Source: Candidatus Omnitrophota bacterium
GTDB lineage: Bacteria > Omnitrophota > Gorgyraeia > Zapsychrales > Zapsychraceae
Assembly: GCA_015233115.1 (NCBI GenBank)
Contig: JADFYJ010000013.1
Coordinates: 9,670-73,669, forward strand
Length of the DNA: 64,000 bases
Reading direction: 5' to 3'
Within the stretch, counting starts at the first letter, position 1, and the number at the start of each line of letters is the position of its first letter. Position numbers and translations under genes: made by a program. Positions 1 to 47,626 of the stretch are shown one piece after another. The notes beneath the pieces are model-generated. The model was given only the letters and a program-made list of their open reading frames with translations, was not told the origin of the DNA and searched no databases.

Positions 1-1249
1 CAGGCTGAGGCATAGGATCATGATCCGGAATCCCCGCTTTCTCAAGTTTGGGATCAATCATATAAAAAATTTTTTCCCGTGAACAACTCGCGTGCTGCAT
101 ATCTAACAGCATCGAAGATTGGCATCCTCCTTTAATTCCTGAATAAACGGCACGGGCAAAAATAAATAAATCTAAAAAACTCAAAACACATCTAGGAGAA
201 TAACGTTCCGCAAACCTGCGGTGCGCCAAAGAAATCAATTCTTCCCGGGGAATGGTCCAGTCTAAAAAACCTTCCCTCAAATATTTTTTAAATAACGGAT
301 AAAAATCCAACCCATCCACTTTAAACACCCTGTGGAATTCTTTTAATTTTTCATATCCCGCAAAAACCTGTCCATATTTAAAATTACAAAACATGTGGAT
401 GATATCCCAGGGTGTTAAGAATATTTGCGCAATGCAAAACCGGGCATCGCCCTGTAATGTGCCCACAGAATCGGCAATAGTCCGGCGTGATTTTAATACC
501 CCCGCGGCTTGTTCAAACCACACTAACCAAAACGGGCTCAATGACCGCTTCATTAATTCGTCAGGGAGTGACTTGTAATACCGGTCCGACACTTGACCAT
601 TTTTGTCTTTACTAACACTGACCTCCCATAAACCAGATAAAACAACATTCCCGATTTTTTGCGGCGGCTTCAACAACTGCTTTAAATATAATGTTTCCAG
701 AATCATCGCTAATGCAAATTTGGCACGCTTAAGCAATACTATCAGACAAGATGGCCCCGAGGCTTTAACTTGCAGACAGCTTTCCTCAATAAAAAATTTT
801 TCTTTTAAAACTAATTCTATGGCCCCCGGACATCCAAACAATGATAACCGGGATGCTTCATCTTGAGACGCTAATTCCGCAATTGCTAAAACTTGAATGA
901 TCTGGTCAAAAACCGGCTGAGTTTCACAATCTTTTTCAGAAACTTTATGAAACCACCACACGCTCTCCCCGTATTTATTTTTTAAAGCTTCCCGGAAAGT
1001 TTTACCCGAAAGATTTTTTACGACACCGATTTGAGCGGTAATCTGTATATAAATTTGACGGGCGCGTTCTTTAAAATTCCGGCAAAATATCCGGCCGCGG
1101 ATTATTTCACATTGTGGATTCGCCTGAATAAAATCTTCTTCATCCTTGGGCCATAAAAAACTTAATACTTTGACCCCAGCCTCAGGAGGATGTTCAGGAA
1201 CATCCCAACATATCCAAATTTTAGAAGTATTTTCTAAAGACTGTCTCAC
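1..1249 (-). CDS. Hypothetical polysaccharide-locus protein, 3' end beyond window; probable GTG start overlapping the upstream stop (GTGA)
   Basis: Manual translation of the minus strand gives an uninterrupted frame of over 410 codons from about 1249 to position 1 (..VRQSLENTSKIWICWDVPEHPPEAG..MLLDMQHASCSREKIFYMIDPKLEKAG..). It is absent from the ORF track, presumably because it has no stop inside the window. It is in the same orientation as the operon with a 4-nt overlap to the upstream gene. No confident family match by eye. Confidence 0.45.
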   Translation of the reverse strand, partial: MRQSLENTSKIWICWDVPEHPPEAGVKVLSFLWPKDEEDFIQANPQCEIIRGRIFCRNFKERARQIYIQITAQIGVVKNLSGKTFREALKNKYGESVWWFHKVSEKDCETQPVFDQIIQVLAIAELASQDEASRLSLFGCPGAIELVLKEKFFIEESCLQVKASGPSCLIVLLKRAKFALAMILETLYLKQLLKPPQKIGNVVLSGLWEVSVSKDKNGQVSDRYYKSLPDELMKRSLSPFWLVWFEQAAGVLKSRRTIADSVGTLQGDARFCIAQIFLTPWDIIHMFCNFKYGQVFAGYEKLKEFHRVFKVDGLDFYPLFKKYLREGFLDWTIPREELISLAHRRFAERYSPRCVLSFLDLFIFARAVYSGIKGGCQSSMLLDMQHASCSREKIFYMIDPKLEKAGIPDHDPMPQP

Positions 1250-2124
1250 TTTTTCAAACTTTCTGAAATTTGTTGAAAACAACCTAATAATCCCTGCCCA
1301 ATATCCGTGTAGCAATTCGACGTAATTTTCTGACCAATTTTAGGAATATACGAATATGGCGTCATAGTGTAATGATCTGGATTGGTTCCTGGATGACAAT
1401 CAATGGTAATCTTCTGCCCCATCATTTCTTCAATGGTCGCGATCAGTTGTTTTAACTTAATAGGATGATGGCCAGTAATGATAAGATGTTTATTTTGGTA
1501 TTGTTGAGCCAAAATATCCACGCTCAATTGAGCCGCGTCTTTCACATGAACATATTCTCTGATCTCTTCTCCATCGCCAGCAATAGTCACTCTCTTTTTC
1601 TCTAGAGCCTGCTTAACATAACGATAAACACTGTTTGTTTCACTCGCCCGCGGACCATATAATGTTCCGTAACGCAAAATCGTGAAATCTATGCCATATT
1701 TCCGTTGAAATTCTTCAATGTATGTTTCAGCCGCTTGTTTGCTGCAGCGATAGAATCCGCCTTTTTCGCTGTAAACATAAATGGAGCTGGCAAAAATAAA
1801 CCGTTTCACCTTTTCTAAACGGCAGGCTTCCAAAATATTCAAAGTCCCTTCTACGTTCAAACGCAGTGTATCTATGGGACGCGTAAGCGAAGAGTCTAAA
1901 TCCGCCAACCCGGAAAAATTGTAAACCACATCCTTCCCTTTAATCGCGGTTAACACTTTTTCTGTGTCCAAGATATCAGCGACCTGCATTTTTTGTCCTG
2001 CATTGAGATAAGGCGAATGATGAACATCATAAATAGTCACCTCATGCCCCTGCTCCGTAAGACTATCCGCGACATGACTCCCCAAAAATCCTGAACCACC
2101 GAATACAATCACTTTTAACGGCAT
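1246..2124 (-). CDS. NAD-dependent epimerase/dehydratase (extended SDR)
   Basis: N-terminal Rossmann motif VIVFGGSGFLGSHV and YxxxK motif (YRCSK). The internal ATG at 2124 is preceded by GAGGAG; the track start at 2190 is a TTG inside a repeat array. Confidence 0.75.
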   Translation of the reverse strand: MPLKVIVFGGSGFLGSHVADSLTEQGHEVTIYDVHHSPYLNAGQKMQVADILDTEKVLTAIKGKDVVYNFSGLADLDSSLTRPIDTLRLNVEGTLNILEACRLEKVKRFIFASSIYVYSEKGGFYRCSKQAAETYIEEFQRKYGIDFTILRYGTLYGPRASETNSVYRYVKQALEKKRVTIAGDGEEIREYVHVKDAAQLSVDILAQQYQNKHLIITGHHPIKLKQLIATIEEMMGQKITIDCHPGTNPDHYTMTPYSYIPKIGQKITSNCYTDIGQGLLGCFQQISESLKK

Positions 2125-2142
2125 ATGTACTCCTCTTTTGAA

Positions 2143-2293
2143 AGTAACCGAGTAACCGAGTAACCGATTAACAAAGTAAAAACTAACCAAACCGCGTGCC
2201 CCATGCTAACTTCAAATATTTCTCGTAATCATTAAGTAACAAAGTAACCGAGTAACAGAGTAACAAAGTAAAAACTACGCAAACCGCGTGCCC
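2143..2293. repeat. Two roughly 60-bp direct-repeat blocks (2143-2202 and 2235-2293), each made of five 8-bp-phased GTAAC-containing units and ending in AAACCGCGTGCCC
   Basis: Direct reading: agtaaccg agtaaccg agtaaccg attaacaa agtaaaaa ctaaccaaaccgcgtgcccc, and 92 bp later aagtaacaaagtaaccgagtaacagagtaacaaagtaaaaactacgcaaaccgcgtgccc. Two short hairpins follow (2294-2312 aaacacaa/ttgtgttt; 2335-2353 cagctcc/ggagctg). Confidence 0.6.
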
Positions 2294-2406
2294 AAACACA
2301 AGGTTTGTGTTTAAACCGAATCACCGAGCGAGTTCAGCTCCGCTTAGGAGCTGCTGTTTGAGCGAATGATTTGGTTTAAATGCAAACCGCCCAACCGCGC
2401 GCTTTA

Positions 2407-3048
2407 CTATAACAACCGCAATTTACTTTCTAATGCTTCTAAATCGTTTATCATGTCGGATACCAGGGGTATGACATGCTGATTTTCCTTAGTTACCCGG
2501 AAAATAAATTTTACGCCTGTGGCTTGTGCCGCTTTTAAATCAGACTCCCCATCGCCAATAAAAACCACTTCATTCAAGCCATAATGAAAATCCGCCATGA
2601 TAGACCGGATGATTTTATCTTTAGTCGCCGGAGCGCCATGTATTCTTTCGAAATAATTGCTCAACCCTTTTTGCCGGACAATCAATTGCAATTCCGAATC
2701 CGGTGTTCCGGACGCGATAAAAAACTTATATTGGCTTTTATGTTGTTTTAAAAATTCTTCCGCGCCCTTGACGAGAGGAGCAGACACAACCTGCTCAAAC
2801 ACGATCTGCTCAAATTTTGACGAAAGTTCTTTTTCAATATCTGCCGTATAAGTTTCTTTCAAAATATGCTCATAAAAATAACGGAATTTCACAAAACGCG
2901 TGATGCCGGTGTTCTTCAGATGATGCGCGACACCTTGTTCAGCTAATTGAGACGGCCAAGCTGAAAATAACTGCCGAAATGCCGCAGTTTTAATATGCGC
3001 GGATTCGACAATGACGCCGTCAAAATCAAAAATCACTGCTTTGATCAT
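2407..3048 (-). CDS. HAD-superfamily hydrolase (beta-phosphoglucomutase-like sugar-phosphate phosphatase)
   Basis: HAD motif I AVIFDFDGVIVES, plus the IGDG..D motif near the C-terminus. Confidence 0.75.
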   Translation of the reverse strand: MIKAVIFDFDGVIVESAHIKTAAFRQLFSAWPSQLAEQGVAHHLKNTGITRFVKFRYFYEHILKETYTADIEKELSSKFEQIVFEQVVSAPLVKGAEEFLKQHKSQYKFFIASGTPDSELQLIVRQKGLSNYFERIHGAPATKDKIIRSIMADFHYGLNEVVFIGDGESDLKAAQATGVKFIFRVTKENQHVIPLVSDMINDLEALESKLRLL

Positions 3049-3962
3049 TTTTTACTTTCTAAAACATCTAATAAATTTTGAACAGATTCTATTTCCATAC
3101 GGATCCGGGCTTCCTGGGCATAGGATCCGATATGCGCAGTCAACACCACATTATTGAATTGGCACAATGGACCGGTATAAGGCTCTTGCTCAAACACATC
3201 CAGAGCCGCGCCTTTGATCTTTCCATCCTTCAAATATTCTATGAGCGCGTTTTCATCAACCACTCCGCCGCGGGACGTATTAACCAGCCAGCCTTTCGGT
3301 CCCAAAAGCTCCAGTTCATTTTTCGATATCAAGTGATCAGCTGAGTTGATATGTACCGTAATAATATCCGCCCAGCGCAACAGCTCTGGCATTTCCATTC
3401 TGGGGATATTTAGAAAATCACTTTGATGATACGTATCAAAATACGCCAGCTCACAGCCGAAAGCCTTTAATAATTCCGCCACTTTTTTTCCGATTCGGCC
3501 ATAACCAATGATCCCGACTTTTTTCTCAAATAACAAATGCCCCATTCGCTTATGCCATTGTCCGCCGCGCAGTTCCCTATCCATCATGCTGATCTTACGC
3601 ATCAAATCCAAAATTAAACCGACTGTCAATTCAGCCACAGCTAAGGTCGGCGCGTTAGGAGTGCTTTTTAATATCATGCCTTTTTGATTCATCGCGGGCT
3701 GATCCACATTATCAATTCCGGCGCCGCAGCGTGATATCACTTTTAAACCAGTTAATTGATGGATAACATCAGCAGTCAATTTTTCTGTCCCTGCCACCAA
3801 CCCAATAGAACCTGATACGAGCTTAATAATTTCATCAGCTTTCATGGTGCGGCCATGCGGATTCAACTGGTATTCATAACCAGCCTCTCTGAGTAATTTT
3901 AAAGGCTGATCACTGTATTCAGCGAATGAACTGGTAGAAATAAAAATTTTACCCTTAGCCAT
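3045..3962 (-). CDS. D-isomer-specific 2-hydroxyacid dehydrogenase (phosphoglycerate/glycerate dehydrogenase-like)
   Basis: NAD-binding motif GIIGYGRIGKKVAELL, the catalytic-domain arrangement typical of the SerA/GyaR family, and a 4-nt overlap with neighbouring genes. Confidence 0.75.
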   Translation of the reverse strand: MAKGKIFISTSSFAEYSDQPLKLLREAGYEYQLNPHGRTMKADEIIKLVSGSIGLVAGTEKLTADVIHQLTGLKVISRCGAGIDNVDQPAMNQKGMILKSTPNAPTLAVAELTVGLILDLMRKISMMDRELRGGQWHKRMGHLLFEKKVGIIGYGRIGKKVAELLKAFGCELAYFDTYHQSDFLNIPRMEMPELLRWADIITVHINSADHLISKNELELLGPKGWLVNTSRGGVVDENALIEYLKDGKIKGAALDVFEQEPYTGPLCQFNNVVLTAHIGSYAQEARIRMEIESVQNLLDVLESKK

Positions 3963-3964
3963 AT

Positions 3965-4738
3965 TTATCCCTTCACATATTGTTTTGCTAATTTATCAGA
4001 ACGCATCAAGTCTTCCACCAAACGAAAATCTTCCGGTGTATCGACACTGTACGTTTCGTGCTGGGTCATCACCATTTTTACTTTATAACCGTGTTCTAAA
4101 ACGCGCAGCATATCCACGGATTCAACCTTTTCTAATTCGGTTGGTTCTAATTCATTAAACTTCAACAAAAAATCCCGCTGAAAAGGAATAATACAAATTT
4201 GTTTTAACATGCGGAAATTTTTTCCGCCTTTTTTCCAGGACGGAATCGCTTCACGGGAAAAGTACAAGGCAAAATCATTCCGGTCTACTACGACCTTAAC
4301 TTCATTGGGGTCTTCCTGTTCTTCACGCGAATCCATAAGCGACATCAAATTGGAAACTAAAATATTTTTATCATCAATTAAAGGTTTGACAGCTTCATCT
4401 ATCATGTTGGGGAACAACATCGGCTCATCGCCCTGCACCATGACAATCAAATCCGCTTTTCGGCCCCGCTCTTTTTCAATTTTTAATAGCGCTTCCGCGA
4501 CACGGTCTGAACATCTTTCATGGGTATCTTTGGTCATAACCGCTTTTCCGCCGATAGACTCAATATAATCTTTGATCACTTGATCACAGGTCGCGACATA
4601 AACCTCGCTTACTAACGTCGACATTTTGGTCCGGAAATACACATGGCCAATCATCGGCGTACCATTAATTTTAACCATAGGTTTGCCCGGAAAACGCGTA
4701 GATGCCATGCGTCCGGGAATAATTGCGATAATATCCAT
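3965..4738 (-). CDS. KdsB-family CMP-ulosonic acid cytidylyltransferase (CMP-Kdo synthetase-like)
   Basis: IIPGRMASTRFPGKPM, VQGDEPM, ALYFSREAIP and VDTPEDF match the conserved KdsB blocks almost residue for residue; length 257 aa. Confidence 0.8.
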   Translation of the reverse strand: MDIIAIIPGRMASTRFPGKPMVKINGTPMIGHVYFRTKMSTLVSEVYVATCDQVIKDYIESIGGKAVMTKDTHERCSDRVAEALLKIEKERGRKADLIVMVQGDEPMLFPNMIDEAVKPLIDDKNILVSNLMSLMDSREEQEDPNEVKVVVDRNDFALYFSREAIPSWKKGGKNFRMLKQICIIPFQRDFLLKFNELEPTELEKVESVDMLRVLEHGYKVKMVMTQHETYSVDTPEDFRLVEDLMRSDKLAKQYVKG

Positions 4739-4749
4739 AAAAACTCCTC

Positions 4750-5574
4750 CTAAATTTTTCGTCTGAACAAATAATTAAAAACCTGTTTGTCCTGTCCCTG
4801 TCTAATCTTTTCGCCGTCTTGCTTATGAATCAACATTAATCCGCTGTCTTCAATTTTTTTAATTAATGCCTGATGCCCGGCTAAACTTTCATTGATTTCT
4901 ACTAAAAGAGATTTTAGCCTGGTATTTTTTAGTACTTGAGCCGCGCCTTGAATAATATCTTCCTCGATTCCATCCACATCAATTTTTATGTGGTCAGGTG
5001 TTAGCTGGTACCGGTTTACAAAATTATCTAAAGTCATAGAAATCATGCCTTGCTTATAAACCGGGCTAAACGTTTTCCCCTGCTCGTCTATTTGTTGATT
5101 AAATTGATTCAAAGCCGCGCCCGCTTCAAATGACGGCATATATAAATAGCCCAAGGTTTCTTCCCTGGCCAGCGCTATGTTTAAAGCGGTCACTGAATCT
5201 GCGCATTGATTAAGAAAAATATTCTTATTCAATAACGCGTAATTTTGCGATTCAGGCTCAAAAGCAATGACTTTTACACCCTGTTTAGCGGCGTAAATCG
5301 AATATAATCCTATATTGGCGCCGATATTAAAAAAAACTTCTCCGGGTTTCATTGAATCCAGCCATTCAATTGTCGCTGGTTCTTTGCTGAAATAAGTATC
5401 CATCCTCCACCTGGTTGTGCTATTCGGGCAGGAAAAAACAAACGTTTGCTGATTACGCGTAATTTTATATATCGGCTGTATTTCTTCCGCCACACTGCAG
5501 GATGTTACGCTGGCTTTGTCCAATCCCATAATATGGATCAGTGATTTAAGTATTGTTCTTTTCCAATGTTTCAT
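4750..5574 (-). CDS. FkbM-family SAM-dependent methyltransferase
   Basis: FkbM (Methyltransf_21) signature FNIGANIGLYS..IAFEP. Confidence 0.7.
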   Translation of the reverse strand: MKHWKRTILKSLIHIMGLDKASVTSCSVAEEIQPIYKITRNQQTFVFSCPNSTTRWRMDTYFSKEPATIEWLDSMKPGEVFFNIGANIGLYSIYAAKQGVKVIAFEPESQNYALLNKNIFLNQCADSVTALNIALAREETLGYLYMPSFEAGAALNQFNQQIDEQGKTFSPVYKQGMISMTLDNFVNRYQLTPDHIKIDVDGIEEDIIQGAAQVLKNTRLKSLLVEINESLAGHQALIKKIEDSGLMLIHKQDGEKIRQGQDKQVFNYLFRRKI

Positions 5575-5588
5575 AAACGTTTTCCTTA

Positions 5589-6353
5589 TTATTTTTTAAT
5601 CTGTTTCAATTGATCCGCAACCATAGTTGCCAAGAAATAAGAATCCAGACTAAAGCCCAGGAAAGTAAATCCCTGCTGTTGTTTTTGTTTTAACAAATTG
5701 ACATCTGGAGGAACTGAATGCGCCCCTGCGGTTTTATTTAATTTGCGGCACACTTCTAAATATCGTGCTTCTGCCTGCTTAACTTCGTCTCTATGAAATT
5801 CTCCGGGGAAGCCCATGGATGCGGAAAGATCATATGGACCAATAATACTGCCATCCACTCCCTCGACTGACAATATTTCTTCTAAATGCTTAACAGCATC
5901 CACATGCTCAATCTGCACAATGACCACAGCGTTATCTTTCAACCATTGTTTATAAGCCTCAAAATCCATGCCGAATTTCTGTGCACGCGCCAGCCCGACT
6001 CCACGTTTTCCCTTCATAGGATAATAAACTGATTCGACCGCCCGAATCGCGTCTGCTTTAGAATTCACCATAGGTACAATAACTCCATACGCACCAGCAT
6101 CCATAACCCGTTTGATAATCAAAGGGTCATTCGCGCCTACACGCACTAAAGGAATCGTACCGCAAAGCTCCGCGATGCGGATGAGTTCCTGAGCCTGGCC
6201 AAACGTAATCGCCGAATGTTCCATATCAACCGCCAGCCAGTCAAATCCGGATGAGGCCATGATTTCCATGGTATTTCCGTCAGATAAAGTAATCCAAGAA
6301 CCAATCGTCAATTGATTTTGCTTCAACTGCTCTTTTAATAAATTTTTTTTCAT
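5589..6353 (-). CDS. HpcH/HpaI-family class II pyruvate aldolase
   Basis: GFDWLAVDMEHSA matches the HpaI block GFDWLLIDGEHAP. The size of 254 aa and TIM-barrel aldolase composition fit. Confidence 0.7.
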   Translation of the reverse strand: MKKNLLKEQLKQNQLTIGSWITLSDGNTMEIMASSGFDWLAVDMEHSAITFGQAQELIRIAELCGTIPLVRVGANDPLIIKRVMDAGAYGVIVPMVNSKADAIRAVESVYYPMKGKRGVGLARAQKFGMDFEAYKQWLKDNAVVIVQIEHVDAVKHLEEILSVEGVDGSIIGPYDLSASMGFPGEFHRDEVKQAEARYLEVCRKLNKTAGAHSVPPDVNLLKQKQQQGFTFLGFSLDSYFLATMVADQLKQIKK

Positions 6354-12606: not shown

Positions 12607-12616
12607 AACTGTCCCT

Positions 12617-15864: not shown

Positions 15865-15866
15865 GT

Positions 15867-19318: not shown

Positions 19319-19352
19319 ATTTCTTATCCTAATATATTTTACATTTTTTGTA

Positions 19353-39060: not shown

Positions 39061-40132
39061 TTAACATCCCGATAATTTCTCCGGAAATGCGATGAATATA
39101 AGCATCATCAATCTCCTGGTTAACCCATAAATTTAAAATATTAGCGCCGATCCACTCACTCACTATCTGCGGCCCGGAAATTTTTCCGCTCATAAAAAAA
39201 CTAGCTGATGGCTGCCAACTGCTAATTTTAAAATTTTGTTTAAGCAAATGGCGGAATACCCGATTACGCTCATCTGAAATAAAAAAGTTAAACCGCCAGT
39301 CTACAGATCCCTCCGGAGGATTAAAAAACTCAACGCCCGACAGCTGGGCTCGATCAAAAATCTGCGTAAATTTCTCCCTATTGGAACGGCGGGCAGCAAT
39401 ATTCGCCTCAATGTTTTCCAATTCTGCGGTTAATTTATCCGCATAATCCAATGAAAATTTGTGCATAAAATTATTTTTAACTAAATGCATTTCATCCTCA
39501 AAACAGAGACATTCGTCCACTCGCCCTTCCAAAAAATATTGATTATAGATCTGCGTATGCCGACGGCTTAATTGATTAATTTTATCTTCAGCCTCTGAGG
39601 AAAATTTCCTAAATCCATTTTGAATAAAAACCATTTCCTCATAAAGTTTCTTATCATTAGTCAAGACCGCACCGCCATGTCCGATATCAATAATTTTTCC
39701 AGCGCCAAAACTCACGACCGAAATATCCCCAAAACTTCCCGCGGGCCGGTGATGAATAGTAGCCCCTTCTGCAAGAGCAAAATCTTCAATCAACGGGATA
39801 TTATTTTCTAAACAAACCTTGGAAATCTCTTCAATATCACAAACCGCTCCATACGCATGAACAGCTATCACCGCGTCAATGTCCCTCACGTTTCTCTTAA
39901 TCTCATCCAGCGAAATTCCCAAATTTCTTTTCGTGACATCCAAATACACCGGCAAATTATTAGAAAGCCTCACCCCAATCGGAACGTTCACACACACATT
40001 ATTCGGGATGGCAATCCGCTTACTCTTTAACCCCAATGCCGTTAAAGCTAGCATAATTCCAGCCGTAGCATTCCCGGTCAAAAGCACATATTCCCGTTGA
40101 TGTAATTTTGACAAAAGCTGTTCAGACTTCAT
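39041..40132 (-). CDS. DegT/DnrJ/EryC1-family aminotransferase (second copy)
   Basis: PLP lysine motif SFGAGKII and fold-type I blocks. Confidence 0.7.
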   Translation of the reverse strand: MKSEQLLSKLHQREYVLLTGNATAGIMLALTALGLKSKRIAIPNNVCVNVPIGVRLSNNLPVYLDVTKRNLGISLDEIKRNVRDIDAVIAVHAYGAVCDIEEISKVCLENNIPLIEDFALAEGATIHHRPAGSFGDISVVSFGAGKIIDIGHGGAVLTNDKKLYEEMVFIQNGFRKFSSEAEDKINQLSRRHTQIYNQYFLEGRVDECLCFEDEMHLVKNNFMHKFSLDYADKLTAELENIEANIAARRSNREKFTQIFDRAQLSGVEFFNPPEGSVDWRFNFFISDERNRVFRHLLKQNFKISSWQPSASFFMSGKISGPQIVSEWIGANILNLWVNQEIDDAYIHRISGEIIGMLNAKRTS

Positions 40133-41427
40133 GTTTTCTCAATCACTCCACATTTTTCTAATTTATGAATCACGGACGACACCAGCTTTTCTTCTATCCC
40201 TAAGCGATAGACCATGTCCGTGACACTCATAGAGCCGTCCATCACAAATAAAACCTTCAAAATCACATCCAATTCCGTCATTCGCATGTTACCAGGAATC
40301 TGTGCTCCGCCGCTTTCCGGATAAAGACCATGCCGGCTTAGCATCACTTCTCCGTGCGGTTCAACCCGGCGGTAAACTTCCCGATTTTCGATTTTATCAA
40401 TAACCTTTAAATAAATCTTTAACGTTTGCTCAATATTCTCCGCAGATACAAAATTTAAATCATCTTGTGAGGTATGATATTGCGGATAATCATAATATTT
40501 ATCTTTGGTCACACTCACAGTATTGATCCGAAAGCCAGGTGAAGAATACTGACGTTCATCACTCCCATGACCGTCAAAAGGGTAAATTTTATATTGTCCT
40601 GCTCCGTATTCGTCGGACAACACCTCAGCAACAATTTGGTTCAAATAATGATCAGCATCCCAACTTTGTTTATATCCCATCATTCCCGGACCGCCGGCCG
40701 TCGTGACAACAAAACCAGCCGCGATTTTTTTCATGATAGTTTCATTATGCGCCAAATACGCAACCGCGCCAATCGTTTCCGGAATCCAAATAAACCGGTA
40801 GCTGTAATTACATTTTTTTTTCGACAATTCGTCCGCTAAAAAGGCGGTTAAAACCAGACCGCTCAGATTATCATTCGCTAATGATGGATGGCAGATATAA
40901 GTTGAGATTAAAATTTCTTGCGGCTTTTTCCCCTTAATAAGCCATTCCCCATAGGTCAAACCGCCGTTTTTAAATTCAGCCTCGATACAAACCTCATACT
41001 CTTCATCCGCATCAATAAATTTTTTATAATCCGCGAAACTTAAACAAAAACCCCAATCTTTTTTGTAATAACTTGTCCGGTAAGGAATCGCTTGCGGATA
41101 ATTTTCTAAATAATGTAAGTGCTTTGCCAGTTCTACGCCTTTTATTTTTTTACATACCGGTTCACTGTAACTAACCACATGCAAATTTGTTTTCTTAAAA
41201 TCAATAATTTTTTCGCCTTGCGCGTTCTTGATCCAAGCATCCTGAATATTCCATTCTTGCGGAACTATCCAATCAAAAACTTTCTGACCCGACGGATATT
41301 CTCCGATTTTGAGCGGGATTAATTCTGATAAAATCCGCAATGTTTCCCTATTCCCTTCGCCCGTAATACTGCGGCAAATCGGAAAAAGCTGTTGCAAATA
41401 GTTTTCTATGTTTTGAACGCGATCCAT
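40129..41427 (-). CDS. Aminopeptidase-like-domain protein with C-terminal winged helix (COG4310-like), polysaccharide-locus associated
   Basis: 432 aa with an M28-like metal-ligand pattern (H..D..E..H); architecture recalled from glycan loci. Confidence 0.4.
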   Translation of the reverse strand: MDRVQNIENYLQQLFPICRSITGEGNRETLRILSELIPLKIGEYPSGQKVFDWIVPQEWNIQDAWIKNAQGEKIIDFKKTNLHVVSYSEPVCKKIKGVELAKHLHYLENYPQAIPYRTSYYKKDWGFCLSFADYKKFIDADEEYEVCIEAEFKNGGLTYGEWLIKGKKPQEILISTYICHPSLANDNLSGLVLTAFLADELSKKKCNYSYRFIWIPETIGAVAYLAHNETIMKKIAAGFVVTTAGGPGMMGYKQSWDADHYLNQIVAEVLSDEYGAGQYKIYPFDGHGSDERQYSSPGFRINTVSVTKDKYYDYPQYHTSQDDLNFVSAENIEQTLKIYLKVIDKIENREVYRRVEPHGEVMLSRHGLYPESGGAQIPGNMRMTELDVILKVLFVMDGSMSVTDMVYRLGIEEKLVSSVIHKLEKCGVIEKT

Positions 41428-42488
41428 TACTCTAACATTTCTTTCAATAATGCTGAATCCTCAGCAATCACCACTTTGGTTCTCCGGCCAATCACCTCAT
41501 CAATCTCCCGGGGAGAAATACCGCACGCCGGACGTTTCCAAGTGAGATCTTCTTTTTCGATCACTTTTCCTTGAGGAATAGTCCTCGCTGCTACTAAACT
41601 CCGCCGCGCATTTTGCCGCGCCGGCTGTTCCGTGGGCCACGATACCACTTCAAAACTCCCGACTAATTCCAAAACCCGCGCCATATTTCTGCGGAACAAT
41701 TTTAAATCATGTTTATCCATCGCGTGATAATGGTCATTTCCCGGGAGAGACTTGTCATGGGTAAAATGTTTTTCCAAAATCCTCGAGCCCAGCACCACCG
41801 CCGTTTCCATAGCCCGCATATCCCACGGCAGGGTGTGATCTGAATAACCAATGATCCTGTCCGGAAACGCCTGCTTCAAACCCAGGATCATGCCCAAATT
41901 GGCATTCCGGTTTTCGGTCGGATAATTAAGGATACAATGCAACAGCGCCAGGGGATTACCAAATGGTTCCACCCACCCCACCGCTTCTTTAACTTCCTCC
42001 AAATTCGACGCCCCAGTTGAAAGGATAATCGGTTTACCAAAGTTACACATCAATTGGATAAAAGGTTTATTAGTCAAATCAGATGATGATATTTTGTAAA
42101 CGCGCATCAAGTTATTCAAAAACGTGGCAGACTCGACATCAAACGGCGTGCTCATGAATTCGATCCCTGCTTGATCACAATACTTTTTTAGTTCTTCAAA
42201 TTCATTTTTCCAAAATTTATCGTGTTTTTTAAAAAGCTCATATTGGCTCCGCGTCGGCTCTTTCGTGGTATCCCAATAAGACGGAGAATTTTTCATGGCT
42301 AGGGTCTGGGCCTTGTAGGACTGAAATTTAACCGCGTCGGCTCCGCCCTCTTTGGCCTCATTGATTAAAAGCTTTGCCAAATCCATGGATCCTTCATGAT
42401 TCACTCCAATTTCCGCGATCACATAAGGATCAGTCACCGGTCTTTCCTGAATCCATTGTTTATTTTTGAATATTTCCAAAATATCCAT
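41427..42488 (-). CDS. NeuB-family nonulosonic acid synthase (copy 2, PseI-like by context)
   Basis: YVIAEIGVNHEGSMDLAK and a C-terminal SAF/antifreeze-like domain. Confidence 0.8.
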   Translation of the reverse strand: MDILEIFKNKQWIQERPVTDPYVIAEIGVNHEGSMDLAKLLINEAKEGGADAVKFQSYKAQTLAMKNSPSYWDTTKEPTRSQYELFKKHDKFWKNEFEELKKYCDQAGIEFMSTPFDVESATFLNNLMRVYKISSSDLTNKPFIQLMCNFGKPIILSTGASNLEEVKEAVGWVEPFGNPLALLHCILNYPTENRNANLGMILGLKQAFPDRIIGYSDHTLPWDMRAMETAVVLGSRILEKHFTHDKSLPGNDHYHAMDKHDLKLFRRNMARVLELVGSFEVVSWPTEQPARQNARRSLVAARTIPQGKVIEKEDLTWKRPACGISPREIDEVIGRRTKVVIAEDSALLKEMLE

Positions 42489-42493
42489 AGCGG

Positions 42494-43198
42494 TTATTTT
42501 CCTTTTAAGATATTTTTAATGATCTGCTCCGCGTCCATATCCGGCGAGACATTCAACTTAGCTAATTTTCCCAGATCTTCGGCCGTGTCAATATCCAATT
42601 TAAGCTCCGGGTGCCACAAAAATTTATTCAAAGGATCAAAAGTTTTAATAGAAAACTTATCCGGATTATCCCAAATGTAATTAAAAACATGTTCCCGCTG
42701 AGCCGGCATTTTAGCTTCACTGTTGATGCGTTCCAAAACGGAACGTGCGACCATCTCCGCGCCTAAACCGTCTGGAAATTTATTATTTCTGGGAATATGG
42801 TTATAAACATAATCACACGGGTTATACATATAAAAATCAATGAGATCATCAATGCATTCCCACGCTATGAACGGATTATCCGCGCAAACCCGGACAATAT
42901 GTGTCGCGTTGACTTTCTGTGCCGCTTGAGCAAACCGGTCAACCACATCATTTTCACTTCCTAAAAAGACCGTACCCCCCTGTTTTCGCACATGATCCGC
43001 TAATACCTGATTGTCGGCTGTATCAGGAATAGCAACGACCACTTGATCAATTTTTGCGGCTTGACTTACCCGGCCTATCACCCAATCGATAAGCGGAGTG
43101 CCCCGCAGCGAAAGCAACATTTTATTGGGCAGTCTGGAAGCGCCCATTCTTGCCTGAATGATGGCTATGACATTATTCGCCATATAAACACCTTTCAA
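42494..43198 (-). CDS. PseF-like CMP-NulO cytidylyltransferase
   Basis: IAIIQARMGASRLPNK signature. The start may be the internal ATG at 43183. Confidence 0.75.
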   Translation of the reverse strand: MKGVYMANNVIAIIQARMGASRLPNKMLLSLRGTPLIDWVIGRVSQAAKIDQVVVAIPDTADNQVLADHVRKQGGTVFLGSENDVVDRFAQAAQKVNATHIVRVCADNPFIAWECIDDLIDFYMYNPCDYVYNHIPRNNKFPDGLGAEMVARSVLERINSEAKMPAQREHVFNYIWDNPDKFSIKTFDPLNKFLWHPELKLDIDTAEDLGKLAKLNVSPDMDAEQIIKNILKGK

Positions 43199-44795
43199 TT
43201 TCCCGCCAAACTTTGAGTTTATTAGTTAAAAAATGAAATGGGCGCATCCGTTCCCACAACTGTTTTCTTAAATGCCCATCAGCACAGAGCGAATGCAAAG
43301 ATTTTATAATTTTCTTTTCCGTCTTCCCTTTACTATAAAGGCCTAAAGCGATATAGCCGTTATCCTGGCAGGCAAATTTATGGGTTTGTTCCCTGTCGTG
43401 ATGGGCAATGATAATCGAAGGAATATTCATATGCGCCAATTCATAAACTGTCCGGCCGTTTGAAGAAATTGCCAGATCCACCCGTTCCATCACTTTCGAC
43501 ATTACTCCGGTTTGATTAGTAAATGATATCCCGGAAAAACTGTTTTGTTCTATAAAATTTCTGAGGACGTCCACATACTCATAACCCGGGCCCGCTACCA
43601 CATGCACCCGGATTTTTTGCTTTTGGCAAAAGGCATAAACCGTATTCAAAACAGTGAAAGTTAAATTACCGGGATCAGTCCCTCCAAAAGTTATTAAAAT
43701 ATCTTGCACCTTTTTCCTAAAAATATATTTTTTAGCTCCAATGAATTCATCCCGCAAAAAATAATATGAGTGGCCCCAGCGATATTGGGCGCCCGGCTTC
43801 AATGGCTCATCAAAGAGCTCATTAAAAACGAGATGGGCACTCTCGCCTCCCGGCCCTAAATCTTCAAAATTAACAACTTTGATCCCTGCTTTTGTCAAAC
43901 TCTTAATGTATTTCGCTTCCGTATTAAGAATGTCATTGATTACGAGATCGGGCTTAAGAGCAATAATACGTTTAATGATCTGCCCTTTGGCACACACCTC
44001 GATAGGATAGTCATGCCCCGCGATCTTCTGAACCGCGTCTGTGCTATCCTTCTCACAAACAAAGATAATTTCATCTTTGGAATTCTCATGCGCCAAGGTC
44101 AAAGCCCGGTAAACATGGCCCATCCCCATAGCATTATTTCCAATCACGCGAAAAATAATCCGTTTTCGTTGTAGCAGACGTTCACAGACCCACCAATCCT
44201 GATAATTTTTTATCTCTAACCAGTTTTCTTCCAATAAATACGGAAACCACTGCATGGGTTGTTTTTGAGCAACCCGGGCCGCTTTAAAAAGCATAAAAGC
44301 CTTAATCTCAACGAAAAAATTCTGGTCATCTTTTTCAGTTTTCAATCCACCTTTATCATTAAGGACAAACTCATGCCTCGTTCCCTTAACTGAAACGACT
44401 CCATCACAATCTTGATTTTTAAAAAAATCATAAGCGCGTCTGAATTCATTTACCGGCACTAAAGGCGCGTACGGCCAAAAAACTAAAACATTTTCCTTGG
44501 ACGCGTATTCCGCAAAAAATTTAGGCAGTTTCCCAATAAAATCATGATCATCGATTTTTAAAATTTTATCATAATAAAAAGCAATTTGGTTACGTTCGCA
44601 AATCAAAGAAATTTCCTCTGAATCCGTGATGACCAATATCTGCGCTAACGGAACCAGCTCTTTCGCCTTATCCATAATCCGCTGAATCAGCATGACCCCG
44701 TCTAATTTTTTAATCAGGTCATCCGCGAAAGCCACATTTTTTTTGACCGCCGGAATAATAATCTGGCAGTCTAAAATTTTATTTTCGTAACTCAT
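43173..44795 (-). CDS. Fusion protein: N-terminal cytidylyltransferase-like domain plus C-terminal PseG-like UDP-sugar hydrolase (GT-B)
   Basis: C-terminal half has the PseG motif GNNAMGMGHVYRALTLA; the N-terminal 200 aa resemble CMP-sugar synthetase folds (IIIPAVKKN..). Confidence 0.65.
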   Translation of the reverse strand: MSYENKILDCQIIIPAVKKNVAFADDLIKKLDGVMLIQRIMDKAKELVPLAQILVITDSEEISLICERNQIAFYYDKILKIDDHDFIGKLPKFFAEYASKENVLVFWPYAPLVPVNEFRRAYDFFKNQDCDGVVSVKGTRHEFVLNDKGGLKTEKDDQNFFVEIKAFMLFKAARVAQKQPMQWFPYLLEENWLEIKNYQDWWVCERLLQRKRIIFRVIGNNAMGMGHVYRALTLAHENSKDEIIFVCEKDSTDAVQKIAGHDYPIEVCAKGQIIKRIIALKPDLVINDILNTEAKYIKSLTKAGIKVVNFEDLGPGGESAHLVFNELFDEPLKPGAQYRWGHSYYFLRDEFIGAKKYIFRKKVQDILITFGGTDPGNLTFTVLNTVYAFCQKQKIRVHVVAGPGYEYVDVLRNFIEQNSFSGISFTNQTGVMSKVMERVDLAISSNGRTVYELAHMNIPSIIIAHHDREQTHKFACQDNGYIALGLYSKGKTEKKIIKSLHSLCADGHLRKQLWERMRPFHFLTNKLKVWREIERCLYGE

Positions 44796-45957
44796 TCAGC
44801 ACGTCCTTGATCGCCTCTTGCAAATATAAAAATTCCTGATCGGTTAACCGATGCTGAAACGGAAAAGAAACCATGTTATCAAAAAATAAATCCGTATTCG
44901 GACAATTTGCCTTATCCAGCTTCAATTTTTTATAAAAATCATATCGGTATAATGGATAATACTGAACCACGCATTGAACACTTTTTTCTGTCGCCATCTT
45001 GCGAATAAAATCATCCCGCTTGCCATGAGTGATCCGTCCGGCCAGTAAATGATAATTATGCCGCACACTATCTTCTCTATGGAATTCCAGTTCAGAGTAA
45101 GATTTTAACGCGTCGATTAAAGAAATAGCCCGTCTGCGCTTTTGGGCATTGATTGGGTCCAGCCGTTGTAATAATTTTGTTCCTAACGCGCATTCCACTT
45201 CACCTAAACAATAATTGTTCGGCCAAACCGGTTCCCCATTCAATTGCGGCATATCCACATTACCCATGGCCGGAATCCAGTAATCTTGGCGTTCAAATGA
45301 AAACGCGCAATGCCCGTTATGTCGAAGTTGGGGAATAATATTGACGAACTTTTCATTATTGACTGCTAATACGCCACCTTCGCCTAAGGTGGTGATATTT
45401 TTATGAGAATGCAAAGAAAATACCGCCAAGTCAGCAAAAGTTCCGGATTGCTTTCCGTTAATACTCCCGCCAATCGACTGCGCGGCGTCTTCAATCACCA
45501 GTAAATTATGTTTTTTAGCCAAAGCCATAATTGAAGGCATATCCGCCACATAGCCGTACAAATGCACCACAATAATCGCTTTGGTTTTAGGAGACAGACA
45601 CCGTTCGATCGTTTCTGCCGTCACTACTCGGGTTTTCAGATCAATGTCTGCCCATACCGGGGTGACGCCTTTTTTCACAAAAGGATACACCGACGAAGTA
45701 AAAGTATGAGCCGGAACGACCACTTCATCTCCGGGTTTAAACTGACCTAATTGAGCGCAGATTTCTAACGCAGCCGTCGCGTTGCACATAGCAAAACATT
45801 TAGGCGAACCAATATATTCAGCAAATTTCTGTTCAAATTCTTTTAGGTATTTACCCTGCGTCAATGGATCCGCTGTTTTCATGGCTGTCACCACAGTCTG
45901 GATCTCGTCTTCGGTATAATCAATCGCGCGCCCGCTAAAAGGAATTTTGTAGGTCAT
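44779..45957 (-). CDS. DegT/DnrJ/EryC1-family aminotransferase (third copy; PseC-like or KdnA-like)
   Basis: PLP lysine motif FSLHSHKNIT. Confidence 0.7.
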   Translation of the reverse strand: MTYKIPFSGRAIDYTEDEIQTVVTAMKTADPLTQGKYLKEFEQKFAEYIGSPKCFAMCNATAALEICAQLGQFKPGDEVVVPAHTFTSSVYPFVKKGVTPVWADIDLKTRVVTAETIERCLSPKTKAIIVVHLYGYVADMPSIMALAKKHNLLVIEDAAQSIGGSINGKQSGTFADLAVFSLHSHKNITTLGEGGVLAVNNEKFVNIIPQLRHNGHCAFSFERQDYWIPAMGNVDMPQLNGEPVWPNNYCLGEVECALGTKLLQRLDPINAQKRRRAISLIDALKSYSELEFHREDSVRHNYHLLAGRITHGKRDDFIRKMATEKSVQCVVQYYPLYRYDFYKKLKLDKANCPNTDLFFDNMVSFPFQHRLTDQEFLYLQEAIKDVLNELRK

Positions 45958-45959
45958 TG

Positions 45960-47030
45960 TTACATCCTTTTAAATAGTGAAATCATTTTTTCATCAGTCA
46001 GGATTTTTCGAAAGTCTTTACCTAACGCATTGGTCAAAGGTTTCTCGTGAATGACTGAAGAATTCAACAATTGCTGATATTTTTCATTGGATAAATTCGC
46101 GCCAATCCCTTTTGGTAATTTAACTTTTTGCTTAGTCATCATGGTCTGATATTCCGCGTATTCCGCCGGATAAAACTCTTCCAAAACATTCATCGCGTAA
46201 CAATTGGCAATACCATGATGCATTTTAAGCGCAATACTTAAACCAGCAGAAACCGGATGGATTACGCCTACATTTCCAGCCGCGCAACCGCCCAGATAAG
46301 AGGCGATCATCATTTTTTCCCGGTTTTCATCACTCATCATATCGGCTGACAAAAAAATCTGCCGGCACATCTCAACCGCTTTTTCCGACAATGCGTCGAC
46401 CACCACATTCCGGTAACTTCCCCGTAACGATTCCACACAATGAAAATATGTATCCATGCCTGTATAAAAATATTGATCCCTGGACACTGTCACCGAAAGA
46501 TCCGGATCCATGATCAGCTGATCAAACATGGTAAAATCACTATTCATACCCAATTTAATTCCCCGGGCTTCATCTGTTAAAACACAAGTCCTCGACGACT
46601 CTGAACCTGTTCCCGACAATGTTGGAATACCAATTTTATAAATTCCCTGACCTTTCACTAAATCCCAACCCTGATACTGCGCGGCTTGTCCGCCATTAGT
46701 CAAAAGGTTGGATAAAGCCTTGGCCACATCCATGGTAATTCCGCCGCCAATACCCACTACGCAATACGGCAATTCACTGCCCACTTGATCTCTCAAATAA
46801 TCAATATCGGTATTTTTAGGTTCGTCTTTAGTATCAATGTAAAAAATTATATCTTTTTTGCCCGTCGGTATTAAATTGATCAAATCCCTGCCTTTAAAAA
46901 AAGCATCAATACAAAATACGACCCGACCGTTTTCAGAATGAGGAACATTCTTCAACAAATCGCCTAAAGCCCGGATAGCTCCTTTACCAAATACATAATA
47001 AGGCACATTTTTAATATTGCGAAAATTCAT
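45960..47030 (-). CDS. Iron-containing (type III) alcohol dehydrogenase family oxidoreductase
   Basis: VVGIGGGITMDVAK glycine motif and metal-binding His residues in the C-terminal half. Confidence 0.7.
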   Translation of the reverse strand: MNFRNIKNVPYYVFGKGAIRALGDLLKNVPHSENGRVVFCIDAFFKGRDLINLIPTGKKDIIFYIDTKDEPKNTDIDYLRDQVGSELPYCVVGIGGGITMDVAKALSNLLTNGGQAAQYQGWDLVKGQGIYKIGIPTLSGTGSESSRTCVLTDEARGIKLGMNSDFTMFDQLIMDPDLSVTVSRDQYFYTGMDTYFHCVESLRGSYRNVVVDALSEKAVEMCRQIFLSADMMSDENREKMMIASYLGGCAAGNVGVIHPVSAGLSIALKMHHGIANCYAMNVLEEFYPAEYAEYQTMMTKQKVKLPKGIGANLSNEKYQQLLNSSVIHEKPLTNALGKDFRKILTDEKMISLFKRM

Positions 47031-47590
47031 GATATAATCTCCTCTCCGGCGATCTCCTTGATAACATAAACAATTTTATCTGCGGGAAGGGCTTCTAAAA
47101 CAACAGCTCTGATCTCTTTACAAATCAACAAATGGCTTCCATCCCCGTGTTCAGGTAAATCCTCCACCTTAGTCAGATGATACGGCCCTTTAAAATGCTG
47201 ACGAAAAGCTAATTCTAATAAATCTGCCAGATCATTAACTCCCACTACGACGAAGTTACTCTCGCCTTGAGTGTTAATTTGTTCAACCAGTTTTTTTAAT
47301 TTTTCGCGGATGGTGCCGATAGAATTGATGGTCTTCATGGTGTAATGAATAGACTTGTTCATTTTTTCAGAAAAGCCTTTAGGGGTCAAAAGATATTGAA
47401 CCTTTTGTTTGTTCAATTGCTGAACACGAACCATTCCTTTAGTTACTAATCTCCGGACAAGTAGATTAATCATGCCCAAAGAAATCCCCATACGTTCAGC
47501 CAAAACGCGTTGATTTACGCCTTCCCCACTGCCGACGATATTCACTAATTCAAATTCACGTTCATCTAGCATAACTTGCCCTCTGTTCAT
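47027..47590 (-). CDS. Winged-helix (MarR-like) transcriptional regulator with C-terminal uncharacterised domain; first gene of the operon
   Basis: wHTH segment VNQRVLAERMGISLGMINLLVRRLVTKGMVRV; RBS GAGGG before the ATG. Confidence 0.6.
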   Translation of the reverse strand: MNRGQVMLDEREFELVNIVGSGEGVNQRVLAERMGISLGMINLLVRRLVTKGMVRVQQLNKQKVQYLLTPKGFSEKMNKSIHYTMKTINSIGTIREKLKKLVEQINTQGESNFVVVGVNDLADLLELAFRQHFKGPYHLTKVEDLPEHGDGSHLLICKEIRAVVLEALPADKIVYVIKEIAGEEIIS

Positions 47591-47598
47591 TAATTGAA

Positions 47599-47626
47599 CA
47601 ACGACACTATTATATTAATTTAATAA
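47599..47626 (-). promoter_or_regulatory. Near-consensus sigma70 promoter: -35 TTGACA, 16-nt spacer, -10 TATAAT
   Basis: The reverse complement of 47599-47626 reads TTGACAtaagttattaaattaaTATAAT, about 30 nt upstream of the regulator start codon. Confidence 0.65.

Follow-up and report, generated by a model that had tools for sequence, protein, structure and literature searches.

The locus described here lies in a stretch of 64,000 nucleotides from a Candidatus Omnitrophota bacterium (contig JADFYJ010000013.1; the whole stretch is called the window below) and consists of a long co-directional gene array that runs from position 47590 down to position 1. Its closest described counterparts are found among the ulosonic acid genes of Shewanella, Bacillus, Leptospira and Campylobacter. 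The oxidase KdnB and the transaminase KdnA convert 3-deoxy-D-manno-octulosonic acid (Kdo) to its 8-amino derivative, Kdo8N, which is regarded as a hallmark of Shewanella (PMC6357163). The sps genes of Bacillus subtilis make a nonulosonic acid other than pseudaminic acid (Pse), by the legionaminic acid (Leg) pathway (PMC7439481), and in Leptospira interrogans genes annotated as kdnB occur together with neuA genes (PMC8510873). In a lipopolysaccharide (LPS) island of Herbaspirillum, proteins of the LIC12162 family and others named as surface carbohydrate proteins adjoin neu genes (PMC6679464). In Campylobacter jejuni, Cj1295 is needed for a Pse derivative of flagellin (PMC3068675). A single literature search that paired 'Omnitrophica', the older name of the phylum, with 'nonulosonic' returned no paper, and no paper in the literature searched contained 'radical SAM' and 'nonulosonic' together. 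To our knowledge, the surface chemistry of the Omnitrophota, an uncultured phylum, has not been described.

We propose that the locus is probably a surface-glycan biosynthesis cluster, which makes and installs several ulosonic acids activated as cytidine monophosphate (CMP) sugars, is led by a repressor-controlled promoter and serves a lipid-linked export route. Transcription would start at a sigma-70 promoter at 47609-47636, just past the terminator of a btuB unit, and the winged-helix product of the first gene most likely exerts repression or autoregulation through the palindrome TGTTCA-N5-TGAACA, which overlaps the transcription start. Read-through of about 45 kb of translationally coupled genes would probably follow, and at least one further start, of the sigma-54 type, is likely in a 282-nt gap before the last two genes. 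By homology, module 1 (41427-47030) would form a nonulosonic acid with a NeuB-family synthase, replace a side-chain hydroxyl by an amine through a KdnB-like oxidase and the adjacent aminotransferase, and activate the product with a dedicated cytidylyltransferase; the sugar may then be decorated by Cj1295-like, FemAB-like, carbamoyl-transferring, methyl-transferring and radical-SAM enzymes. Module 2 (7919-24390) would follow the Campylobacter-type GDP-GlcNAc route to legionaminic acid, with LegB, LegC, NeuC/LegG, NeuB/LegI, LegF-like and PtmA/E/F-like proteins, extended by a WbuX/HisH/HisF acetamidino cassette and by formyl, methyl and ATP-grasp tailoring of the N-acyl groups. In module 3 (2407-6353), a KdsB-like enzyme may activate a third acid of the 2-keto-3-deoxy type, or a glycerate-derived unit. 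Two, possibly three, large proteins (LIC12162, PF27878 and perhaps a TIGR04326-like protein) would move the sugars onto a lipid-linked oligosaccharide, which a Wzx-like flippase would export, and an MBOAT/DUF1574 pair would carry out O-acylation outside the cytoplasm.

Predicted routes to activated ulosonic acids

The structural genes nearest to the promoter form a five-gene cassette:

45960-47030, minus strand: KdnB-like oxidase of the iron-containing alcohol dehydrogenase (Fe-ADH) family, full-length match to 5k8c
44779-45957, minus strand: DegT aminotransferase (family hit)
43173-44795, minus strand: fusion protein of 540 aa, with a degenerate cytidylyltransferase as its N-domain and a PseG-like GT-B protein as its C-domain
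42494-43198, minus strand: cytidylyltransferase (CTP_transf_3; family hit)
41427-42488, minus strand: NeuB-family synthase (family hit)

The Fe-ADH protein aligns with KdnB (5k8c) from residue 1 to residue 355 of 356, with 46% identity over 350 aligned residues (E 1.5e-92), and the next family in the PDB reaches only 106 bits. It has more than 6000 homologues at E < 1e-40, at 56-66% identity. A survey of the cassette, made up of five gene-context look-ups and 42 genome loci, found the Fe-ADH and DegT genes adjacent in essentially all of these 47 external loci where the contig leaves room, with the genes for the fusion protein and the cytidylyltransferase coming next in most of them. The full five-gene order of the window recurs in L002, L003, L008, L009, L010, L012, L025 and L050; in L013 and L004 the cassette has an inserted gene and the cytidylyltransferase gene stands after NeuB. 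A NeuB gene is included in the cassette in Omnitrophota (the window, L002 and L013), in Nitratidesulfovibrio (L003, L009, L010, L012 and L050) and in an Arcobacter metagenome-assembled genome (MAG; L004), as well as in L008 and L025. Genes for a DUF4910/DUF2172 (Cj1295-like) and an Acetyltransf_6 protein come after the cassette in the window, L002 and L008, and a LIC12162-family gene follows soon after it in L003 and L008.

By analogy with KdnB and KdnA, the most likely role of the cassette is to place an amino group on the side chain of an ulosonic acid, at one of its carbons, and where NeuB is included the substrate would be a nine-carbon acid. The cassette core, joined in this lineage by NeuB and the Cj1295-like and FemAB-like proteins, may represent a widespread, uncharacterised route to a new class of CMP-activated amino-ulosonic acids, aminated at C8 or C9 of the side chain by the Kdo8N chemistry, which is not known to date outside Shewanella LPS, and, in Omnitrophota, modified by radical-SAM and B12-dependent radical-SAM enzymes and installed by a LIC12162-family GT-B protein; we put this forward tentatively, as an idea that has somewhat less than an even chance of being correct. 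At least 47 loci from at least four phyla have the core in whole or in part. The four-gene core without the synthase is common in Desulfovibrionaceae (for example in L032, L035 and L045). Desulfovibrio falkowii carries the full four-gene core among housekeeping genes, and Bilophila wadsworthia ATCC 49260 and Desulfovibrio piger carry the Fe-ADH-DegT pair only, on short contigs. The presence of the core in this family hints at Kdo8N-like chemistry outside Shewanella.

The second module contains the following genes:

23392-24390, minus strand: LegB (TIGR04180, 504 bits, above the cut-off of 475)
22293-23399, minus strand: LegC aminotransferase (TIGR04181, 411.5 bits; cut-off 420)
between LegC and NeuB/LegI, minus strand: methyltransferase, PHP phosphatase, ATP-grasp ligase and short-chain dehydrogenase/reductase (SDR) (family hits; for the ligase PRK12767.1-1, 299 above 218)
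17416-18447, minus strand: NeuB/LegI synthase (TIGR03569, NeuB_NnaB, 484 above 400)
between NeuB/LegI and NeuC/LegG, minus strand: formyltransferase, PIG-L deacetylase and methyltransferase (family hits)
13967-15148, minus strand: NeuC/LegG hydrolysing 2-epimerase (TIGR03568, 474 above 236)
11395-13974, minus strand: HisF/WbuZ, HisH and WbuX amidotransferase (WbuX 346 above 203)
10333-11394, minus strand: PtmE-like protein with CBS and nucleotidyltransferase domains (family hits)
9398-10336, minus strand: PtmF-like GFO oxidoreductase (family hit)
8694-9401, minus strand: LegF-like cytidylyltransferase (CTP_transf_3; best model PseF, 133, below 206)
7919-8707, minus strand: PtmA-like SDR (NF050062, 194; cut-off 350)

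The formyltransferase, the PIG-L deacetylase, the methyltransferases, the ATP-grasp ligase and the PHP protein are plausible enzymes of N-acyl exchange.

The third module lies further downstream:

5589-6353, minus strand: HpcH/HpaI aldolase (family hit)
4750-5574, minus strand: FkbM methyltransferase (family hit)
3965-4738, minus strand: KdsB-subfamily cytidylyltransferase (CTP_transf_3; NF009905, 312 above 255; TIGR00466, 165 above 155)
3045-3962, minus strand: 2-hydroxyacid dehydrogenase (family hit)
2407-3048, minus strand: HAD phosphatase (family hit)

Family scans found no KdsA, KdsC or KdsD among the proteins of the window. A similar tail, running from a CTP_transf_3 gene to a 2-hydroxyacid dehydrogenase-HAD pair, is present in L006.

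The sequence-only reading of this DNA had described a combination of Leg-, Pse- and Kdo-type activation enzymes. Three CTP_transf_3 cytidylyltransferases are indeed encoded (42494-43198, 8694-9401 and 3965-4738), next to a fourth domain of this type that is degenerate, and the Leg and KdsB types stand; what had been called Pse-type is the KdnB-like cassette. We dropped the label of a Pse pathway, as every Pse equivalog score falls under its cut-off (PseC 231 against 423.5, PseG 143 against 153.6, PseI 230 against 340, and PseF 30 and 133 against 206) and the proteins of the locus include neither a PseB, the best score on TIGR03589 being 85 bits, on LegB, nor a PseH-like protein. The NeuB protein of the cassette lies below both of the equivalogs that could name it (NeuB/LegI 318 against 400; PseI 230 against 340).

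Several results weigh against the assignments made above. The cassette aminotransferase scores 129 bits against KdnA (5k8b) and more against other sugar aminotransferases, up to 151 bits for its top hit in the PDB. In many Desulfovibrio and other Desulfovibrionaceae loci the core has no adjacent NeuB gene, and the substrate of the cassette there could be Kdo instead of a nonulosonic acid. In the Leg module, the LegC model is by far the best match of 22293-23399 but remains below its equivalog cut-off, and the PtmA-like protein is likewise under the cut-off of its model. Among the locus ORFs, no LegH-like protein of either the hexapeptide or the GNAT type was found; formyltransferase, ATP-grasp and Acetyltransf_6 proteins are encoded instead.

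Predicted tailoring, transfer and export

Between the cassette and the Leg module, and downstream of the latter, lie genes for the modification, transfer and export of the predicted sugars:

40129-41427, minus strand: Cj1295-like DUF4910/DUF2172 protein (family hit)
39041-40132, minus strand: divergent DegT-like protein (family hit)
38047-39060, minus strand: FemAB-like Acetyltransf_6 protein (family hit)
36929-38008, minus strand: radical-SAM SPASM protein (family hit)
35127-36926, minus strand: carbamoyltransferase (family hit)
34136-35083, minus strand: methyltransferase (family hit)
33078-34094, minus strand: radical-SAM SPASM protein (family hit)
32137-33075, minus strand: aldo-keto reductase (family hit)
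30373-32124, minus strand: LIC12162-family putative glycosyltransferase of GT-B fold (TIGR04331, 398 bits, above 225)
28827-30311, minus strand: B12-binding radical-SAM enzyme (family hit)
27361-28803, minus strand: MBOAT membrane O-acyltransferase (family hit)
26256-27296, minus strand: DUF1574-like MBOAT partner of about 346 codons, with an in-frame TAA at 26853-26855
24400-26250, minus strand: PF27878 (PFTS_polysacc) protein, putative transferase of GT-B fold
6357-7883, minus strand: Wzx-like MOP flippase (Polysacc_synt)
1246-2124, minus strand: SDR epimerase/dehydratase (family hit)
2-1243, minus strand: TIGR04326-like surface carbohydrate protein, N-terminal part only, running off the window

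The LIC12162-family and PF27878 proteins, both large and without classical GT domains, are the best candidates for the CMP-sugar transferases. Both are predicted with high confidence (AlphaFold2 pLDDT 92 and 94, respectively). For the first, the Foldseek matches in the PDB are essentially all of GT-B fold, mostly glycosyltransferases along with UDP-GlcNAc 2-epimerases and the hydrolase PseG, and for the second they include OtsA, the TagF/TarL polymerases and a capsule polymerase. The two families show a distant kinship in the C-terminal domain (hhalign 74%, E 2.7e-5); hhalign found no relation of the N-terminal part of the TIGR04326-like protein to either of them. The B12-binding radical-SAM protein is probably a tailoring enzyme of the C-methyltransferase type. 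The presence of Wzx, as read earlier from the letters alone, is borne out by a Polysacc_synt match of 86.6 bits, above the cut-off of 28.2, and by about 11 hydrophobic segments.

Two local features of these genes may be recorded here. The LIC12162-like gene carries, on the coding strand, a tract of eight G residues (31112-31119) at the invariant QHGGG motif; it is the sole G/C homopolymer of at least 8 nt in the window, with about 0.3 expected by chance, and recalls the phase-variable tracts known from glycan genes of Campylobacter. The gene of the DUF1574-like MBOAT partner is split by its in-frame TAA into two ORFs, 26853-27296 and 26256-26828, which their translations identify as halves of one gene; the stop codon could stem from decay of the gene to a pseudogene, from recoding or from a fault in the assembly.

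The presence of the flippase and of the MBOAT pair speaks for a glycan that is lipid-linked and exported, the final acceptor of which may be an LPS O-antigen, a capsule or a general protein O-glycan. Against this stands the lack, in family scans of the proteins of the window, of an initiating phosphoglycosyltransferase, Wzy, Wzz, ligase or oligosaccharyltransferase, and because Wzy, Wzz, ligase and initiating transferase are missing it is from Wzx by itself that we infer the lipid-linked route. A search for the acceptor by way of wzy/wzz/waaL, Maf or PglB/PglL had been suggested earlier, and the proteins of the window yield no Wzy, Wzz, ligase, Maf or oligosaccharyltransferase by which to decide it. 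Alternatively, the locus may be a protein glycosylation island of the Campylobacter type, from which CMP-nonulosonic acids would pass straight to flagellin, or to another protein, in the cytoplasm. The order of the Leg module genes agrees with that of the C. jejuni ptm cluster, neuB ... neuC ... ptmE-ptmF-ptmB-ptmA, and the window encodes both a chemoreceptor and a protein like Cj1295, the flagellin-related function of which was mentioned above. In L007 (at 6909-7784), L027 and L041, which come from Betaproteobacteria and Deltaproteobacteria MAGs, a flagellin gene is the divergent neighbour of the Fe-ADH cassette, and in L001, the one locus with a close PF27878 homologue, a Maf/MptE-like gene stands beside that homologue. 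However, no Maf/MptE-like protein (PF01973) and no flagellin was found among the window proteins scanned, and the Wzx-like flippase and the MBOAT protein with its partner act on glycans that are exported and lipid-linked or extracytoplasmic. The LIC12162 family (TIGR04331) was defined from O-antigen regions. Its members have, in addition, been proposed to act on LPS (PMC6679464). On balance, we consider flagellin glycosylation unlikely and prefer a lipid-linked surface glycan as the product of the locus. At 1102-4278 of L001, the PF27878 homologue, the closest non-self one found, is 33% identical in a word-index search, an exhaustive search giving a representative at 40%, and is followed by Maf/MptE-like (PF01973), radical-SAM and cytidylyltransferase genes.

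Promoter, probable operator and extent of the transcription unit

The 5' end of the locus holds a compact set of regulatory features, followed upstream by a gene of the BtuB type:

47027-47590, minus strand: winged-helix (HTH_24/MarR-like) regulator (family hit), likely start ATG 47572
47585-47599, either strand: operator-like palindrome (T)GTTCA-N5-TGAAC(A), immediately past the -10 hexamer
47609-47636, minus strand (47636..47609): sigma-70-type promoter TTGACA-16-TATAAT, 12/12 in a consensus scan
47661-47727, minus strand: perfect tandem array of 4.2 copies of a 16-nt unit, CTGTCCCTATTTATTT, ending 25 nt upstream of the -35 hexamer
47718-47764, bidirectional: terminator hairpin with a 20-bp stem (20 pairs, 8 GC, T-run), ending the upstream btuB-like unit and marking the 5' boundary of the locus
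47781-49814, minus strand: TonB-dependent (BtuB-like) receptor, adjoining the locus on its upstream side
49867-50024, minus strand: cobalamin riboswitch (RF00174, 49 bits), preceding the receptor gene

The exact sequence TTGACA-16-TATAAT occurs once in the window against 0.08 expected, for a consensus that is E. coli-like and may not be that of the host. A strong promoter had been placed by the sequence-only reading at 47599-47626, about 10 nt from its actual position, so as to cover the -10 hexamer and miss the -35; that it is the only consensus-like promoter agrees with its being the sole exact 12/12 match in the window, with counterparts in two other loci. These are L002, a 122-kb JGI contig of Omnitrophota, and L013, a marine Omnitrophota MAG, in which motif searches (a global alignment of the window with L002 gave no information) found 11/12 promoters, TTGACT-16-TATAAT at 9329-9356 and TTGACG-17-TATAAT at 5536-5564, respectively. 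In both, the promoter is followed at once by the same palindrome, then by a Shine-Dalgarno sequence and the start of an orthologous regulator (54% identity in L002 and 47% in L013). The palindrome TGTTCA-N5-TGAACA, of which the window has two sites against 0.04 expected, occurs twice in L002 and also in L013, between promoter and regulator start, and in the set of 50 loci it is absent from the other 47 fetched ones; the arrangement of promoter, palindrome and regulator is likewise found only in L002 and L013. Because the promoter is conserved together with the palindrome and the orthologous regulator in these two loci, we hold it to be real as far as comparison of sequences can tell, and the winged-helix regulator probably uses the palindrome as its operator. 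The longest ORF of the regulator begins at ATG 47590, which lies within the palindrome and has no Shine-Dalgarno sequence. A second in-frame ATG, at 47572, is preceded by AGAGGG, and both orthologues begin at its equivalent; since these two lines point to it, ATG 47572 is probably the true start and ATG 47590 wrong.

Upstream of the -35 hexamer, at a distance of about 80 nt, the terminator hairpin closes the TonB-dependent receptor gene. The tandem array may act as a regulatory element of the upstream or UP-like kind: its unit CTGTCCCTATTTATTT has five copies in the window against 0.02 expected, the fifth being inverted (47756-47771) and forming the other arm of the terminator stem. A related palindrome, AGGGCAGAC...GTCTGCCC, lies upstream of the promoter of L002. 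Along with the riboswitch and the BtuB-like receptor next to the locus, the region has the B12-dependent MetH further upstream and a B12-radical SAM enzyme inside the locus; BtuF/FecCD/ABC and CobA genes are also present at the equivalent position of L002.

From 47590 to position 1, the ORF listing of the 64-kb window has all substantial ORFs on the minus strand. Each of the plus-strand ORFs of at least 80 aa in the locus is nested within a longer minus-strand gene, and nearly all of the latter have family hits. The description of this array as one of about 47 kb and 47 genes is right as to strand, which is uniform down to position 1; we count 46 ORFs, however, of which 45 are complete and one (2-1243) is cut by the window edge, past which the 3' end of the locus lies, and two are halves of a single gene. 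Scans of genome and metagenome contigs with the protein of 2-1243 turned up no relative. Its pervasive 4-nt overlaps and mostly short gaps are also largely as described: 10 of the 45 junctions are 4-nt overlaps (8 ATGA, 1 GTGA and 1 TTGA), and by class 20 junctions overlap to some extent, 16 have 0-15 nt between the genes, 8 have 16-64 nt and a single one has a long gap, of 282 nt, so that 36 of the 45 are overlaps or gaps of no more than 15 nt. The compactness of the locus is genuine.

The claim that these genes form a single operon has in its favour the one direction, the short junctions and the absence of a strong terminator inside the locus; in no internal junction was there a terminator-like match, apart from a weak hairpin at 2289-2277. 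Promoter-like and terminator-like matches inside the locus are at shuffle expectation, in scans that rest on E. coli-like signals, which may not be those of Omnitrophota. That limit counts against a single transcript. The shared direction does not by itself speak for one operon, since it extends over the entire window, where the minus strand carries 57 of 58 genes and the MTHFR gene (50839-51717) is the exception. A third point is the longest internal intergenic region:

2125-2406, minus strand: gap of 282 nt, candidate internal promoter or operon break

The length of the gap follows from the placing of the epimerase start at ATG 2124, the most likely one, with an AGAGGAG Shine-Dalgarno sequence and a Pfam match that, in the ORF read from TTG, starts at residue 27. 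Within it, a 32-nt element occurs twice (2261-2292 and 2169-2200), with 8-nt tandem repeats after each copy, and an exact core of the sigma-54 type, GGCACG-N4-TTGC (2279-2292), lies in the first copy. The window has two exact cores against 0.06 expected. No enrichment was seen in the window for a loose sigma-54 16-mer with up to two mismatches (8 against 7.9 expected) or for the sigma-28 pattern TAAAG-N15-GCCGATAA (29 against 27), and the RNA fold of the gap is no better than that of shuffles (z = -0.67), giving no sign of a structured RNA. The region 2125-2406 may contain a promoter for the two genes at the visible end of the locus, and its core weakens the case for one transcript at that end; internal promoters had been named beforehand as what would refute the single operon, and the core in the gap is such a signal for at least the last two genes. 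The second exact core (GGCACGCGTGTTGC) lies on the plus strand at 51444-51457, in the 3' part of the MTHFR gene, and no gene of the same strand is downstream of it.

The operon could, at the extreme, be an illusion of strand bias, many independent units having come to lie on a shared leading strand. Such a view would account for the minus-strand position of 57 of 58 genes, which include the unrelated housekeeping genes upstream, and for a plus-strand GC skew that is negative across the whole window (-0.08 to -0.26); the 282-nt gap with its sigma-54-type core is in line with it, and the eight gaps of 16-64 nt could harbour non-consensus promoters. It fits poorly with the junctions, since the 36 of no more than 15 nt, 20 of them overlapping, leave no room for a promoter or terminator outside coding sequence; internal junctions are without an intrinsic terminator, whereas the upstream unit is closed by a 20-bp hairpin, and the gaps between flanking genes are visibly longer (81-348 nt). 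We consider strand bias as the whole explanation quite unlikely. A single 47-kb operon is nonetheless unproven by sequence alone.

A further possibility is that the locus is an island recently acquired by horizontal transfer. The cassette genes are 55-70% identical across Omnitrophota, Desulfobacterota, Campylobacterota and Betaproteobacteria, implying past transfer, and the genes for a putative transferase, the flippase and one methyltransferase have a lower GC content (0.36, in a window that ranges from 0.36 to 0.46), the LIC12162-like gene having a third-position GC content (GC3) of 0.315. Codon usage and GC skew had been proposed as a way to detect acquisition. The skew is uniform. Codon usage and GC3 give no clear sign of acquisition, most genes matching the flanking housekeeping genes; the 5' boundary showed neither an integrase nor a tRNA or transposase, and L002, the closest relative, has the regulator and cassette in the corresponding place on its chromosome, behind the genes for DsbD, MTHFR and a TonB receptor. 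These last points argue against recent acquisition in this lineage, which we regard as very unlikely, and the identity of the cassette genes across phyla points to older transfers.

The flanks of the locus encode NrdD/NrdG, MetH, DsbD, a chemoreceptor and TonB receptors, which points to an anaerobe with a diderm envelope that is probably motile. Two proteins of the locus match at 100% identity proteins of an NCBI MAG of Candidatus Omnitrophica (HQL26_07720 and HQL26_07745), encoded on a contig of 79,509 bp. Between the MetH and chemoreceptor genes lies a pair for a PIN-domain toxin and a MazE/AbrB-type antitoxin (57778-58475, minus strand).

Comparison with known and related loci

The combination of pathways had been called unusual even for Campylobacter or Leptospira, which overstates the case, as the same style is seen in the contexts of two LIC12162 homologues. 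These are L005, a JGI metagenome contig, and L006, another Omnitrophota MAG; they show 21 co-directional genes, NeuB, two or three cytidylyltransferases and several radical-SAM SPASM and B12-radical-SAM proteins, and L005 has a carbamoyltransferase as well. Because L005 and L006 share its architecture, the locus is, judged by gene content, a large example, rich in tailoring genes, of a recurrent, known locus type and not exceptional within the phylum. As an operon alone it is ordinary among glycan loci. Its most noteworthy parts are the KdnB-like cassette, which is the most novel, and the radical-SAM tailoring of nonulosonic acids, which appears to be recurrent in such loci. Kdo8N-type chemistry may reach well beyond Shewanella, to human-gut Desulfovibrionaceae among others and perhaps to nine-carbon sugars. 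One member of the Omnitrophota would seem to devote about 45 genes to sialic-acid-like sugars under a single repressor-controlled promoter, and the locus offers a concrete promoter and a predicted operator motif for a phylum without genetics.

In comparison with KdnB/KdnA of Shewanella, the first structural gene here encodes a full-length KdnB homologue and the next one an aminotransferase of the DegT family, to which KdnA also belongs. However, the aminotransferase is not specifically KdnA-like, the cassette adds the cytidylyltransferase/PseG-like protein, a cytidylyltransferase and, in this lineage, NeuB, and the substrate is probably a nine-carbon acid rather than Kdo. With the sps genes of B. 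subtilis (SpsM, C, D, G, E and F), the cassette has in common a DegT protein, a PseG-like GT-B protein, a member of the NeuB family and a cytidylyltransferase; in contrast, a dehydratase of the SpsM type and the acetyltransferase SpsD are missing from it, it includes the Fe-ADH oxidase, and its PseG-like domain forms a fusion with a degenerate domain of the cytidylyltransferase type.

The O-antigen (rfb) and nonulosonic acid loci of Leptospira resemble the locus in being very long and co-directional, and the LIC12162 (TIGR04331), LIC13510-type (TIGR04326), spiro-SPASM-like radical-SAM and DUF1574 families are Leptospira-defined. The present locus belongs to Omnitrophota, however; the window has no rhamnose genes or typical GT2/GT4 O-unit genes, and the tailoring genes differ in content and order. 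With the flagellar leg/ptm locus of C. jejuni, the locus shares LegB, LegC, NeuC/LegG, NeuB/LegI, LegF-like, PtmE, PtmF and PtmA homologues in a similar order, a PseA/WbuX-type amidotransferase with HisH/HisF, a Cj1295-like protein and, more generally, a large size and several nonulosonic acid pathways. In contrast to the Campylobacter locus, it is without Maf transferases, flagellin genes and a Pse pathway, adds a Wzx-like flippase, an MBOAT protein, the LIC12162/PF27878 GT-B proteins, radical-SAM/B12 enzymes and the KdnB-like oxidase, and has a single regulated promoter of the sigma-70 type with a repressor-type regulator.

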